Under the pieces are notes generated by a model. It was not told where the DNA came from and ran no database searches. It saw only the letters and a program-made list of their open reading frames with translations. From a virus (taxonomy: Duplodnaviria; Heunggongvirae; Uroviricota; Caudoviricetes), in IMG/VR virus record IMGVR_UViG_2880412407_000007: a stretch of DNA of 48,769 bases. The stretch is one strand, 5' to 3'. Both the position numbers and the translations under genes were made by a program. Positions 8,313-23,113 of this stretch are shown here, in pieces. Positions within the stretch are counted from its first letter, which is position 1; each line of letters begins with the position of its first letter.

Positions 8313-8990
8313 TCATCCCCGCCCGATAACCACCACTTTCCCGTCTCCGCCCTCATCACGGGTGCTGATGTCCTGGGATATCCGTCGTGAACCAACCAGC
8401 ATTTCACCATAAGGCACCGGCATCGGGTTCCCCTGGGCAATCATGTTATCCAGTGACGAAAAATACGTGTTCTGTTTACCGTTATCCGTTGCGCGGTAAT
8501 CCGGTGTTTTTGCCTTCGGTGCCAGCATCTGGGCCACACCGCCCAGTATCATGCTGGCACCCAGTGAGAACAGCATCGTGGTGGCAGTCAGCCCTCCGGC
8601 ACTCAGGGCTGCGCCCCACAACGCCATCGTTGCGCCGGCGGTGAAGAAAGAGCCCACGATGGCTGCTGCCCCCAGCACAATCTGCAGTCCGCCCTTTCCG
8701 GCCCCGGCCAGTCGCGGCACAATATGGATGACCACCCCCTCACCCAGCTGTTCGTGAAGACGGGCGTACACCGCCTCCGGTGCCGTGTCCTCACCGCGAA
8801 TACGTATCTGGTACCAGCCTTCGTTCATCTGACGGCGGAATCCCGGCACCTGTAACGACAGCGCCCGGATGGCTTCCGCTGCCGTGTTCACATACAGGCT
8901 GAGGCGGCGGCCAAATCGTTGTAAATCCCCGTGAAGGCAGATGCGTGCCAGCGGCGGTGACGCCAGACAGAATGCGTTCGTCGTTGCCAT
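8313..8990 (-). CDS. I: tail assembly protein I
   Basis: 225 aa matching lambda gpI; 103-nt overlap with the end of K as in lambda. Confidence 0.9.
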   Translation of the reverse strand: MATTNAFCLASPPLARICLHGDLQRFGRRLSLYVNTAAEAIRALSLQVPGFRRQMNEGWYQIRIRGEDTAPEAVYARLHEQLGEGVVIHIVPRLAGAGKGGLQIVLGAAAIVGSFFTAGATMALWGAALSAGGLTATTMLFSLGASMILGGVAQMLAPKAKTPDYRATDNGKQNTYFSSLDNMIAQGNPMPVPYGEMLVGSRRISQDISTRDEGGDGKVVVIGRG

Positions 8991-9629
8991 TTTTCGGAAT
9001 ACCTCTCCCGTTTACTCAGTTGTTCAGGCAGATGGTGAAGCAGCTCACCGTTGCCGCAGTATATGGCGGCATGATTGGTCACCGATGCGCCAAAGCAGCA
9101 CAGCAGGATATCGCCAGGCTGTGCGGAAGGCAGGGAAATCCTGTAAAACCAGTCGCCTCCATATTGTCCAGGTACAGGTTCTGACCGTTGCGCCACCAGT
9201 CATCCTCACGCTCAAAATCCGGCATATCAATTCCCGCCAGATGGTATGCATCCCGGAACAGGGTGTAACAGTCCGTCACCCCGTGCTCAAAGAGCCGTCC
9301 TGTCAGATGTGGCACACAGCGGAATTTATGAATGTCCCCCCGGCAGACCAGCCACCAGGACAGTGCACTTTTTATCTGCAGCCGCCGGTCGGCCTCGCTC
9401 AGCCAGGGCAGACCACCGGGATGACTGTGGACCAGTGCCACAATCTCCCCTGCATCTCTGCCCGCAGCCAGTCTTCCGGTGCAATACGAAAATACGCCTC
9501 CGGCTCTGCAGAGATATTCACACAAGGGATATACCTCTCCCCCTCCGGCGTTCTCACCACGAAGCCGCACGACTCCGCAGGCGCACACCGCCGGGCATGC
9601 GCCAGAATCGCTGATTCAGTCTGTGTCAT
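8888..9629 (-). pseudogene. K: tail assembly protein K (MPN/JAB + NlpC/P60 domains), split over three frames by two 1-nt frameshifts
   Basis: Three overlapping minus ORFs carry consecutive parts: N-terminus (MTQTESAILAHARRCAPAESCGFVV), JAMM motif (HSHPGG...S..D) and NlpC/P60 Cys (DCYTLFRDAYH). Breaks near 9447 (G-run) and 9157 (T-run). Confidence 0.8.
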
Positions 9630-9639
9630 AAACCGGGAT

Positions 9640-19409: not shown

Positions 19410-20989
19410 TCTTCTCCTCCTCTGTTGATTGTCGCAGCCCGGATTCAAATGCCGCAGCCGCCCAGGCGGGCGGTTTAAGACCAGCTGCGCGGCGCTCCAT
19501 CGTTTCACGGACCTGCTGGGCAAAAATTCCTGATAGTCGTCACCGCGTTTCGCGCACTCTTTCTCGTAGGTGCTCAGTCCGGCTTCTATCAGCATCACCG
19601 CTTCCTGAACTTCTTTCAGACCATCGATGGCCATACGACCGGAGCCTATCCAGTCGCAGTTCCCCCAGGCACTGCGGGCTTCCTGAAAGCTGAAGCGCGC
19701 TTTTGAAGGTAACGTCACCACGCGGCGAACGATGGCCTCTTCCAGCCAGCACAGAAACATCTGGCTCGCCTGACGGGATGCGACGAATTTTCGCCGCCCC
19801 ATAAAGTACGCCCACGACTCGTTCGCACTGGCCCGTGCCGTGGAGTAGCTCATCTGGGCGTAATTCCGGGAAAGCTGCTCATACGAGACACCCAGCCCGG
19901 CAGCGATATACCGCAGCAGTGACTGCTCAAACACGGAGTAGCCGTTATCCGTGTCCTGAGCCGTCTGCAGGTTCAGTGAGTCCCCCGGCATCAGGTGCGG
20001 CACTTTTGCGCCTCCAGACGGACCGGTGCTGCGGCGTAATACGCGGCAATTTCACCAATCCAGCCGGTCAGCCTTTCCCGCTGCTCCTGACTGTTCGCGC
20101 CCAGAATAAAATCCATCGCTGACTGCGTATCCAGCTCACTCTCAATGGTGGCGGCATACATCGCCTTCACAATGGCGCTCTGCAGCTGCGTGTTCTGCAG
20201 CGTGTCGAGCATCTTCATCTGCTCCATCACGCTGTAAAACACATTTGCACCGCGGGTCTGCCCGTCCTCCACGGGTTCAAAGACATGAATGAACGAGGCG
20301 CGCCCGCCGGGTAACTCGCGGGGTATCCATGTCCATTTCTGCGGCATCCAGCCAGGATACCCGTCCTCGCTGACGTAATATCCCAGCGCCGCACCGCTGT
20401 CATTAATCTGCACACCGGCACGGCAGTTCCGGCTGTCGCCGGTATTGTTCGGGTTGCTGATGCGCTTCGGGCTGACCATCCGGAACTGTGTCCGGAACAG
20501 TCGCGAGGGACGGGTATCCCAGGTGGCCTGAACGAACAGTTCACCGTTAAAGGCGTGCATGGCCACACCTTCCCGAATCATCATGGTAAACGTGCGTTTT
20601 CGCTCAACGTCAATGCAGCAACAGTCATCTTCGGCAAACTCTTTCCATGCCGCTTCAACCTCGCGGGAAAAGGCACGGGCTTCTTCCTCCCCGATGCCCA
20701 GATAGCGCCAGCTTGGGCGATGACTGAGTCGGAAAAAAGACCCGACGATATGATCCTGATGCAACTGGATGGCGTTGGCGGCATAGCCGTTATTGCGTAC
20801 CAGATCGTCTGCGCGGGCATTGCCACGGGTAAAGTTGGGCAGCAGGGCTGCATCCACACTTTCACCCGGTGGGTTCCACGCCCGCAACTGCCCACCAAAT
20901 CCGCTGCCACCGCCGTGATAACCGGCATATTCACGCAGCGATGTCATGCCGTCCGGCCCCAGAAGGGTGGGAATGGTGGACATTTTCAT
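19390..20989 (-). pseudogene. B: portal protein B, two frameshifts
   Basis: ORF 19991..20989 is the N-terminal 320 aa of lambda gpB. A break near 20014 (G-run) moves the rest into the frame of ORF 18585..20003; a second break near 19527 removes the last ~45 aa and fuses B in frame with C. Confidence 0.8.
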
Positions 20990-21192
20990 ACATAAAATCC
21001 TGCAGGTCCCCTGCGTCGCTGTGTCATGCCGGTCTGCACTTCCAGCTCAGCAATGTATTTTTTCAGGTCAGACACGGAAGTGGTCGTAAACTCCACTCGC
21101 CGTCCGTCTTTCTGTACCGTTGCCACCCGTTTTCCTGTCATCAGGTCATGCAGTGCCGCACGGGCAGCGGCAAGTTCTTCCTGTCGCGTCAT
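20986..21192 (-). CDS. W: head-tail joining protein W
   Basis: 68 aa, near-identical to lambda gpW. Confidence 0.9.
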
Positions 21193-23113
21193 TCATCCTC
21201 TCCGGATAAGGCACGGGCGTATTCTGCCAGTGTTTTCTTGTTGGTTGCTGCACCATCCTCTTCCTGCAGGCTCGCCAGCAGTGCACTGAGATCCAGCTGC
21301 CAGCGGGAAATACTGATGCGCAGCGCCGCCAGCGCATAAACGAAGCAGTCGAGCGCCTCATTGCGTCGCTTTTTGCTGTCCCACAGTATTTTTTCCTGCC
21401 ATCCACCCATTTTTCGACCTGCTCTTCAGCAGTCAGTTGCTGCGCTTCGGTAAGATCAAAAATATCCGGGTTATTCGGGAAGTGAACTGCACCGGGAAGC
21501 GGTTCATCCCCTTCCGGCGTCAGTGTGAAGCGGTTATAAATCTGCTCTTTCGCGGTATCCGTACCGATTTCGGTAAGGTAAACCCCGTTTTTGTTTCGCT
21601 TACGTGGCATGCTGGCCACCGGCTTTCCGTAGACGGATGCCCCTTTAATGGGGATCACCCGGAACAGCCCATGTTTTTTCGAGCGTTCATACACAATGGT
21701 CGGGTCAATCCCGCCAGTATCCCAGCAGATACGGGATACCGACATTTCTGCACCATTCCGGCGGGTATAGGTTTTATTGATGGCCTCATCCACACGCAGC
21801 AGCGTCTGTTCATCGTCGTGGCGGCCCATAATAATCTGCCGGTCAATCAGCCAGCTTTCCTCACCCGGCCCCCATCCCCATACGCGCATTTCGTAGCGGT
21901 CCAGCTGGGAGTCGATACCGGCGGTCAGGTAAGCCACACGATCAGGAACGGGCGCTGAATAATACTCTTTCCGCTCTGCCATCACTTCAGCATCCGGACG
22001 TTCGCCGATTTTCGCTTCCCACGTCTCACCGAGCGTGGTGTTCACGAAGGTTTTACGTTTTCCCGTATCCCCTTTCGTCTTCATCCAGTCTTTGACAATC
22101 TGCACCCAGGTGGTGAACGGGCTGTACGCCGTCCAGATGTGAAAGGTCACACTGTCAGGCGGTTCAATCTCTTCACCGGATGACGAAAACCAGAGAATGC
22201 CATCACGGGTCCAGATCCCGGTCTTTTCGCAGATATAACGGGCATCAGTAAAGTCCAGCTCCTGCTGGCGGATGACGCAGGCATTATGCTCGCAGAGATA
22301 AAACACGCTGGAGGGGTCATCCGGCGTCCATTTGAGGCCAAACGGCGTCTCTTTGTCGCCAAATTTAAGATACTGCTCCTCCCCGCAGTGCGGGCAGGCA
22401 ACATGAAAACGCATAAAATGCGGGGATTCACTGGCTGCACGCTCAATCTGGCAGGTGCCTCTCACTTTGGGCGTGGAGCCACGGATGGACTTTGGCCAGA
22501 CCGAGCCTTCAATACGCTTGTCACCCAGGAACGTCGGAGAGCCTTCCTGTTCAATATCCTCATCAAAGGCAGCAAGTTCATCATAACCCGCCACATCAAC
22601 CGACTTTTCACGGTAGTTTTTTGCCGCTTTACCGCCCAGGCACCAGAAGCCACGACCATTGGTGAAACGCTTCATAGTGAGCGTGTTATCCCGGTGCTTT
22701 TTGCCATACCACGGGGCCAGAGACAGCAGCGACGGAATATCGCGGATGGTAGGCTCGACGTGGGTTTTCATAAAGTTCTCGGCATCACCATCCGTCGGCA
22801 ACCAGATAAGGGTGTTACGCTGCTTATGCTCTATGAAGTAAGCATAAACACCCAGCAGCATTTTTGAATAACCAACACGGGCAGACTTCACCACATTCAC
22901 CTCGCGGATGTAGTCGCTGCCCATCGCATTCATGATAGCCCGCTGAAAGGGTAGTGTTTCCCAGCGCCCTTCCTGGTATGCGGATTCTTTCGGGAGATAG
23001 TAACTGGCATCCGCCCATTCAACGGCAGTCTGTGGCTCCGGCCTGAACAGGGCTCGCAGCCCGGCGCGTACATCACGCCGCAGAATATCAATCTGACTGT
23101 TCGATATATTCAC
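21189..23113 (-). pseudogene. A: terminase large subunit A, one frameshift near 21390
   Basis: ORF 21146..23113 is collinear with lambda gpA up to ...WVDGRKK; the last ~70 aa (ILWDSKKRRNEALDCF...SGEDE) are in ORF 21189..21410. Break is in an A-run at 21389-21394. Confidence 0.85.

Follow-up and report, generated by a model that had tools for sequence, protein, structure and literature searches.

The stretch of DNA analysed here (the window, 48,769 nucleotides) is part of an E. coli O121 prophage, and positions 8,888-23,113 hold its lambda-like K-to-A morphogenesis module. In ascending window coordinates the late genes are arranged as J-I-K-L-M-H-T-G-V-U-Z-FII-FI-E-D-C-B-W-A-Nu1, which read in reverse is the lambda-like order Nu1-A-W-B-C-D-E-FI-FII-Z-U-V-G-T-H-M-L-K-I-J, and RefSeq product names and Pfam families match. 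The families found include Phage_Nu1, GpA_ATPase, gpW, Phage_portal_2, Peptidase_S49, HDPD, Phage_cap_E and Packaging_FI for packaging and the head, and Minor_tail_Z, Phage_tail_U, Phage_TAC_2, Phage_tail_T, TMP_2, Phage_min_tail, Phage_tail_L, NLPC_P60 and Lambda_tail_I for the tail. As written, J (read from its native start, and described as intact by an earlier note on this DNA), I, L, M, G, U, FII, FI, D, W and Nu1 are unbroken.

Downstream in window coordinates, an IS3-family element splits the antiterminator gene Q, and the same insertion is found in every O121 assembly examined. The reference copy of this multicopy element is annotated as intact with a programmed frameshift. Programmed -1 frameshifts are annotated in the window at G-T and at the IS3-family orfAB, both distinct from the deletion sites described below. 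Because the element interrupts Q in every strain, it is a genuine inactivating lesion that leaves the prophage truly defective regardless of those deletions. Other lesions common to O121 strains, and likewise separate from the deletions, are an IS in yfdR and a truncated replication (HTH) gene.

Features of the window, with the basis for each assignment. Codons refer to the genes named; L008 and L013 are faulty tail-module copies described in the text.
Feature	Position	Strand	Basis or remark
Lambda-like late module	4600..23633	minus	RefSeq annotation of 99.9%-identical loci, coordinates mapped to window, read from native starts
Block with 16 one-base deletions, 0 insertions, 1 substitution	8079..21394	unstranded	blastn vs L001/L003-L007
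C5 to C4, intergenic, 6 nt upstream of J start codon	8079..8082	unstranded	run also affected in L013
A5 to A4 in K, codon 163	9145..9148	minus	run also affected in L008 and L013
C5 to C4 in K, codon 62; product ends after 76 aa	9447..9450	minus	reference comparison
Exact repeat common to O121 prophages A and B	11147..26756	unstranded	per-kb mismatch profiles, k-mer copy analysis
C5 to C4 in tape-measure gene H, codon 355	12214..12217	minus	run also affected in L008
C5 to C4 in H, codon 254	12516..12519	minus	run also affected in L008 and L013
C5 to C4 in H, codon 243	12548..12551	minus	run also affected in L008 and L013
G3 to G2 in H, codon 3, which is codon 134 (end) of T	13267..13268	minus	reference comparison
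G3 to G2 in major tail gene V, codon 54; product 96 aa	14720..14721	minus	reference comparison
C6 to C5 in Z, codon 79	15624..15628	minus	reference comparison; common only to 2015C-3107
C4 to C3, intergenic between E and FI	16655..16657	unstranded	reference comparison
C3 to C2 in major capsid gene E, codon 243	16968..16969	minus	reference comparison
Lone T lost (GGTATCC to GGTACC) in C (S49 protease), codon 263	18623..18624	minus	only non-homopolymer deletion
G4 to G3 in C, codon 223	18742..18744	minus	reference comparison
T3 to T2 in portal gene B, codon 489	19527..19528	minus	reference comparison
C3 to C2 in B, codon 326; product 332 aa	20014..20015	minus	reference comparison
T7 to T6 in terminase gene A, codon 576; 655-aa product, wrong C-terminus	21389..21394	minus	reference comparison
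IS3-family insertion splitting antiterminator Q	31380..32556	minus	RefSeq annotation of relatives, window ORFs
G4 to G3 in orfB of the element in Q; 17th deletion	31712..31714	minus	reference comparison

When set against at least 12 intact copies in eight other E. coli O121 assemblies (base-by-base blastn comparison with reference loci L001 and L003-L007), the window has 17 one-base deletions, no insertions and one substitution, A versus T at position 13,670. The intact copies come from FWSEC0006 (A, B), GTVSS-020 (A, B), 2014C-3599, 2015C-3107, 16-9255 (B), AP024471, 2002-3211 and 2014C-3655, where A denotes the prophage on the nleC/IS600 side and B that on the dusA side, as defined in the O121:H19 strains FWSEC0006, GTVSS-020 and 2014C-3599. 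Sixteen of the deletions fall within one 13.3-kb block (15 of them inside 8,888-23,113, with that at 8,079 just outside), and the last lies in the IS element. Fourteen are coding frameshifts, distributed as two in K, four in H (one of which also affects T), one each in V, Z and E, two each in C and B, and one in A; two are intergenic. When the missing bases are put back, the proteins of all 20 genes are identical to their RefSeq references.

The earlier note, made from the sequence and its open reading frames, had reported at least 13 frameshifts in head, tail and packaging genes, which agrees with the 14 counted against the closest relatives. All five junctions that it reconstructed, two each in K and B and one in A, are borne out, the one placed near 9157 in K being the A-run listed in the table. 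Its tallies hold for K, Z, E, B and A, whereas H has four breaks rather than two, V one rather than two and C two rather than one. Its finding that every junction it read is a single-base homopolymer deletion in one direction extends to all sites as to direction, and as to homopolymers to all sites except the lone T at 18,624. The split it noted in the IS orfB is likewise real in the comparison, while rha, suspected as a further case, proves to be an intact ORF identical to all references. Three observations go beyond that note, namely the confinement of the changes to a block overlapping an inter-prophage repeat, the hybrid make-up of the window and the IS in Q.

The spectrum of changes is strongly skewed. 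All 17 indels are deletions (sign test, 1.5e-5), and 16 of them occupy 27% of the window (binomial, 1.2e-8), giving the block a density of about 1.2 per kb, or one deletion per 830 nt (99.88% identity; roughly Q29). A homopolymer is shortened in 16 cases, with reference run lengths of 3-7 nt that are mostly G/C runs of 3-6. G/C runs of at least 5 nt are affected in 6 of 19 cases inside the block versus 0 of 31 outside it (Fisher, 0.0017). Dependence on run length is weak, however, since five deletions lie in runs of 3 nt or less and only 2 of the 15 runs of at least 6 nt in the block are affected. Two of the 16 block deletions are intergenic although only about 3% of the block is non-coding (an estimate tallied by hand from gene coordinates), and the process is therefore blind to coding.

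Such a pattern departs from a natural mutation spectrum, in that the ratio of substitutions to indels is 1 to 17, the indels have a single direction and the longest runs are not favoured. Even when E. coli lacks mismatch repair, which is the natural state most prone to indels, substitutions exceed indels by about 7 to 1 per gene and indels cluster in runs of at least 5 nt (PMC8510543). As a set, the 17 deletions are not inherited by related strains, whereas the IS in Q, the IS in yfdR and the truncated HTH gene are. Comparison with the same prophage in related genomes, which the earlier note had proposed as a check, gave the reference run lengths in all eight O121 assemblies, often in two copies each, the sole exception being the C5 run of Z in 2015C-3107. 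Moreover, the truncated products of B (332 aa), V (96 aa) and E were found in no other assembly in a 153-billion-gene index.

Prophages A and B share an exact repeat of 15.6 kb (11,150-26,772 in repaired coordinates), and about 12.0-14.9 kb of it is present in prophage D as well. Thirteen of the 17 deletions lie inside the A=B repeat and one in the IS copy, while three lie to the left of the repeat; its right 5.4 kb is error-free, where about six errors would be expected (an estimate, P ~0.002). The block (8.08-21.39 kb) is thus offset from the exact repeat (11.15-26.77 kb). Because the K-H genes of prophage D, the third copy examined, are B-type and not A-type, this copy leaves the left outlier deletions unexplained.

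Positions 1-11.1 kb show zero mismatches to prophage A of FWSEC0006 and GTVSS-020, and 21.4-48.8 kb equals prophage B of 2014C-3599 at every base bar the 31,712 deletion. The window is an A-left/B-right hybrid, with the switch somewhere within the exact repeat. This join is absent from all complete RefSeq genomes, and for this reason it may be a misassembly.

Two other O121 assemblies carry faulty copies of the same tail module, L008 in CP022407.1 (O121:H19 16-9255), with 43 deletions and 10 insertions, and L013 in JACDQG010000001.1, with 56 deletions and 8 insertions. Five of the eight window runs that can be compared are also affected in one or both of them. CP022407.1 also has a sister copy of the repeat, free of errors, beside the damaged L008.

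Indels outnumber substitutions, homopolymers change in one direction, sister assemblies lack the changes and the same sites fail recurrently, and this combination leads us to conclude that the 17 deletions, with few if any exceptions, are very probably consensus errors of the assembly rather than mutations. The under-calling favoured over decay by the earlier note is thus upheld by the lesion spectrum, the absence of the lesions from sister copies (bar Z), the intergenic deletions, the recurrent runs and the uniqueness of the truncated products. The source genome would have been assembled from long reads with a high error rate, or by another chemistry that is sensitive to homopolymers, a platform that we infer, with single bases dropped from the draft consensus chiefly at short G/C runs. 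Correction would then have failed in this stretch, perhaps because most of it exists in two or three near-identical prophage copies, plus the IS copy, so that reads could not be placed uniquely. The outcome would be a roughly Q29 island within otherwise perfect sequence, and in the real chromosome the genes for head, tail and packaging would be expected to be intact and to match other O121:H19 strains exactly. Residual long-read errors are known to be mostly homopolymer indels and to survive short-read polishing in repeats (Wick and Holt 2022, PMC8812927).

A variant of this explanation, to which we give a small but real share of the probability, is that most deletions are artefacts while one or two at the longest runs (T7 to T6 in A, C6 to C5 in Z) reflect genuine slippage. 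One or two sites could be natural hot spots of this kind because both alleles recur elsewhere, and long runs are natural slippage hot spots (PMC8510543). The T6 allele of gene A is present in 6 of 3,209 complete-genome records, and two further assemblies (one from NCBI, one from Logan) of an unrelated, 98%-identical lineage encode precisely this 655-aa TerL variant, one carrier being a contig assembled directly from a sequencing run and otherwise without frameshifts. The C5 run of Z is in both prophage copies of 2015C-3107, a PacBio-era assembly, where it is annotated 'frameshifted'. However, all O121 reference copies have T7, and all except 2015C-3107 have C6; the T6 carriers are scattered over unrelated lineages at a frequency of 0.2%, which sporadic error would fit equally well; and the same change in both exact-repeat copies of 2015C-3107 is what a shared consensus error would produce.

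Wholesale decay of the morphogenesis module by 16 independent frameshifts is very improbable. Selection on late genes could be relaxed in a backbone that is defective in all strains, and an intact J with several intact small genes could arise by chance under either model. This scenario nevertheless has to accommodate 17 deletions against one substitution and no insertions, flanks that show no divergence from sister strains, and lesions that hit short runs and one site outside any run while sparing most long ones, in addition to the absence of the lesions from other O121 assemblies (Z excepted), the absence of the truncated B, V and E products from the gene index and the failure of the same runs in other faulty assemblies. 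Slightly less credible still is that the deletions are real and mark a tract synthesized by a Pol IV-type polymerase, prone to frameshifts, when recombination joined A-left to B-right. Pol IV-dependent frameshifts are typically -1 deletions at G/C runs, a spectrum resembled by the deletions seen here (13 of 17 at G/C runs), and the block overlaps the repeat that must hold the A/B switch. If true, one episode of repair would have left in the genome of a pathogen a natural trace of mutagenesis associated with recombination. Yet a similar 17th deletion sits 10 kb away in the IS, three deletions fall beyond the limits of the recombination repeat, assemblies without the hybrid are faulty at identical sites, and no other genome supports the hybrid. 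A density of one deletion per 830 nt is also far above that of any in vivo tract known to us. That the breaks are programmed frameshift or phase-variation sites can be given almost no weight: such -1 frameshifts do occur at G-T and in the IS3-family orfAB, but every relative reads through the 14 coding sites in frame, the breaks share no slippery motif, single genes have up to four, and two deletions are intergenic.

Assembly error, the reading we favour, has practical consequences. At face value the window is a prophage with about ten dead structural genes; left uncorrected, it would push pseudogene counts too high and might be put forward as evidence that a prophage has been domesticated in an outbreak clone. 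Judged from these comparisons, the broken genes are almost certainly a data-quality problem and not biology. The genuine biology is modest, as the prophage is already crippled by the IS in Q in all O121 strains examined. Recognizing an unpolished island averts false pseudogene calls and flags the assembly for repeat-aware re-polishing using all read alignments. If the A/B join is chimeric, structural comparisons would put about 2 Mb of chromosome in the wrong place.

The cryptic lambdoid prophages Rac, DLP12 and Qin carry large deletions, IS insertions and substitutions that are common to related strains. The window resembles them as a lambdoid prophage unable to make virions that has real IS insertions in regulatory genes. 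To our knowledge, -1 homopolymer deletions that are clustered in one strain alone and unaccompanied by substitutions are not seen in cryptic E. coli prophages. In reference prophages A and B the morphogenesis genes are all intact, unlike those of the window, and the repaired window follows prophage A on the left (1-11.1 kb), both in the mid-region and prophage B on the right (26.8-48.8 kb), base for base.

L008 and L013 resemble the window in that indels are bunched in the same module of the same DNA in the same prophage arm. They differ in that their 53-64 indels also comprise insertions, deletions of 2 bases and deletions at CCWGG motifs or adjacent to them, whereas the window has 1-base deletions only, and the head module attached to them is HK97-like rather than lambda-like. 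A close parallel is with the residual errors described by Wick and Holt (2022, PMC8812927), which are likewise single-base indels, mainly homopolymer deletions, that give spurious frameshifts. As in that work, the putative errors of the window would lie mostly where reads multi-map (13 in the 15.6-kb inter-prophage repeat and one in the IS copy), and the identity of the block lies within the range given there for unpolished drafts, although, unlike in that case, the block is displaced by 3-5 kb from the exact repeat as defined here.

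The genes from J through Nu1 make up a lambda-like late module on the minus strand (window 4,600-23,633), which shares 99.9% identity with prophages in E. coli O121:H19 genomes, where all of its genes are annotated as intact in RefSeq. The closest relatives span 14,240-14,241 bases against 14,226 in the query, suggesting that about 15 bases are missing from the latter. Parsed blastn alignments of window 1-27,702 with strains FWSEC0006 and GTVSS-020 contain 16 gaps, each a single base absent from the window, and no insertions; extending the comparison over the remaining window added a 17th one-base deletion at 31,712. 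Use of the best megablast match alone as the orthologue was abandoned, because the window's right half maps to another prophage, at a different chromosomal locus, in the same O121 genomes. The list of deletions was unchanged on re-comparison with both of these prophages (A, on the nleC/IS600 side, and B, on the dusA side), each taken from four strains.

This base-level map bears out the claim in an earlier note of at least 13 frameshifts in the K-to-A module, agrees with all five junctions reconstructed there, and shows that the reported split in the IS orfB is real, being caused by the deletion at 31,712. The per-gene tallies given for H, V and C were wrong and are replaced by those in the table, and rha, proposed as a further case, has an intact open reading frame identical to all references.

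One-base deletions by gene, insertion elements and prophage arms in the window
Feature	Window position	Observation
K		2 deletions
H		4 deletions; the one at H codon 3 also affects the end of T
V		1 deletion
Z		1 deletion; C6 to C5
E		1 deletion
C		2 deletions
B		2 deletions
A	21,389-21,394	1 deletion; T7 to T6
Intergenic		2 deletions: 6 nt upstream of J; between E and FI
IS3-family element	31,380-32,556	splits antiterminator Q
IS3-family element	42,581-43,891	interrupts yfdR
Prophage A left arm		IS600, nleC, tail fibre, lom, J, I, K, L, M
Prophage B right arm		lysis, Q, replication and immunity genes, dusA side

When each gene is translated as written from its native start, K, H, V, Z, E, C and B run into premature stops, and A reads on to a 655-amino-acid product with a wrong C-terminus. 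When the missing bases are re-inserted, 20 of 20 proteins equal the reference proteins. Sixteen of the 17 deletions shorten a homopolymer (C5 five times; C3, G3 and G4 twice each; C6, C4, A5, T3 and T7 once each), and the remaining one removes a lone T. The sole substitution of the window is at 13,670, 4 nt upstream of where gene T is annotated to start and in a stretch expected within the G-T frameshift product; all reference copies have T where the window has A, which could reflect a private SNP or an error.

None of the 17 indels is an insertion (sign test, 1.5e-5), and 16 fall inside a block (8.08-21.39 kb) that occupies 27% of the window (binomial, 1.2e-8). Among G/C runs of at least five bases, 6 of 19 are affected within the block and 0 of 31 outside it. 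Dependence on run length is weak, with five deletions at runs of three bases or fewer and only 2 of 15 runs of at least six affected. Moreover, the deletion process is blind to coding: roughly 3% of the block is non-coding, by a hand tally from gene coordinates, and this share holds 2 of the 16 deletions.

The indel spectrum of the window is not natural. In mismatch-repair-defective E. coli, substitutions per gene exceed small indels by about 7 to 1, indels gather in runs of at least 5 nt, and 95 of 117 tRNA indels lie in one 8-bp run (PMC8510543); in the window, the ratio of substitutions to indels is 1:17, in one direction only, with short runs affected and long runs spared. Outside the block, the window equals its sister strains at all bases except for the deletion at 31,712, and flanks without divergence leave no time for 16 independent mutations. 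Comparison with the same prophage in related genomes, an approach proposed in the earlier note, found intact versions in other O121 assemblies; intact copies are present in FWSEC0006, GTVSS-020, 2014C-3599, 2015C-3107, 16-9255 (copy B), AP024471, 2002-3211 and 2014C-3655. Two indel-ridden O121 assemblies carry 53 indels (CP022407.1, strain 16-9255, 1,216,754-1,237,452) and 64 indels (JACDQG010000001.1) in the shared tail module, and 5 of 8 comparable window runs are also affected in them. In 16-9255, the other copy of the shared repeat (3,351,000-3,400,800) is flawless, and a damaged and a flawless copy in one genome only make sense as a technical effect.

Some single sites could nevertheless be natural slippage hot spots as well as error hot spots, namely the T7 run of gene A and the C6 run of Z, whose C5 form is present in both copies of 2015C-3107. 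In terminase gene A, T6 is found sporadically in 6 of 3,209 complete-genome records (about 0.2%), from unrelated lineages; another lineage adds two assemblies that carry it, one from NCBI and one from Logan. It is also present in a contig that was assembled straight from run SRR30691024. The T7 run is a site of recurrent trouble, of either biological or technical origin. The variant A product and the Z fragment are recorded in other assemblies only, and a very large gene index holds no record elsewhere of the truncated B (332 aa), V (96 aa) and E (293 aa) products.

The CP022407.1 and JACDQG010000001.1 records share the window's quality problem. No CCWGG was seen at the window's deletion sites when their contexts were checked by eye, an absence that says little about platform; several CP022407.1 indels lie at or beside this motif, unlike the window's sites. 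The O121 reference records themselves contain errors: the GTVSS-020 copy (L004) lacks single homopolymer bases that the window and the other strains have, at L004 positions 36,275, in the helicase, and about 48,367, and one of these leaves its replicative helicase annotated as 'frameshifted'.

The window matches prophage A without mismatches from 1 to about 11.1 kb and prophage B without mismatches from about 26.8 to 48.8 kb, and the switch lies inside an exact A/B repeat (11,150-26,772 in repaired coordinates; window 11,147-26,756), of which about 12-14.9 kb is also present in a third prophage, D. This A-left/B-right join was found in 0 of 5,426 complete RefSeq E. coli genomes; the best complete-genome matches reach 99.6% for A copies and 98.3% for B copies. 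Among O121 strains, one tail arm (nleC ... J-I-K-L-M-H-T-G-V) occurs with two head types, lambda-like or HK97-like (ClpP-capsid fusion), when loci L008, L011, L012 and L013 are set against L009, L010 and L014, the switch being near window 14.9 kb. The head swap implies that resident prophages have probably undergone exchange or inversion through the V-G-T-H segment they share, and because the strains vary in head module a genuine A/B exchange is possible. The hybrid could be strain-specific recombination between prophages or a chimeric assembly join through the repeat.

The exact A/B repeat contains 13 of the 17 deletions, and a multicopy IS contains one. Most errors that remain in long-read assemblies are homopolymer indels; they cause frameshifts and persist in repeats after short-read polishing, and the range for unpolished drafts includes the 99.88% identity of the block, with 16 errors per 13,327 bases (PMC8812927). 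The fit to the repeat is imperfect, in that the block is displaced 3-5 kb leftward of the defined repeat (11.15-26.77 kb). The three left-hand outliers fall at 8.06-8.27 and 9.1-9.5 kb, two patches with damage in both other faulty assemblies as well, which suggests a further repeat copy behind them; each genome has 10-16 prophage copies as matching places. Prophage D of FWSEC0006 was rejected as the cause of these outliers: it shares V-G-T-H but its H-M-L-K-I genes are B-type. The right 5.4 kb of the repeat has no deletions, perhaps because long reads with an anchor in B-specific sequence rescued it.

A separate cause makes the prophage genuinely defective: the insertions in Q and yfdR leave it unable to run the late operon whether or not the frameshifts are real. 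With Q split, no phage release on mitomycin C induction is expected in either case. The Q insertion is present in every O121 strain examined; that in yfdR is found in other assemblies too, but yfdR of FWSEC0006 is uninterrupted. All strains also carry a truncated gene in the replication region.

The spectrum, the intact copies and the recurrence in faulty assemblies support homopolymer under-calling over real decay, as the earlier note had favoured. It is very probable that all or nearly all of the deletions are assembly artefacts. The main value here is as a quality flag, for the frameshifts and for a possibly chimeric A/B join. Pseudogenisation does not account for lesions that relatives do not share and whose spectrum is unnatural, nor does programmed frameshifting, since frame is kept in the relatives. 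Beneath the lesions lies an ordinary lambda-like head-tail cluster; the lesions themselves, which are not a biological system, are a textbook match to long-read consensus error in repeats.
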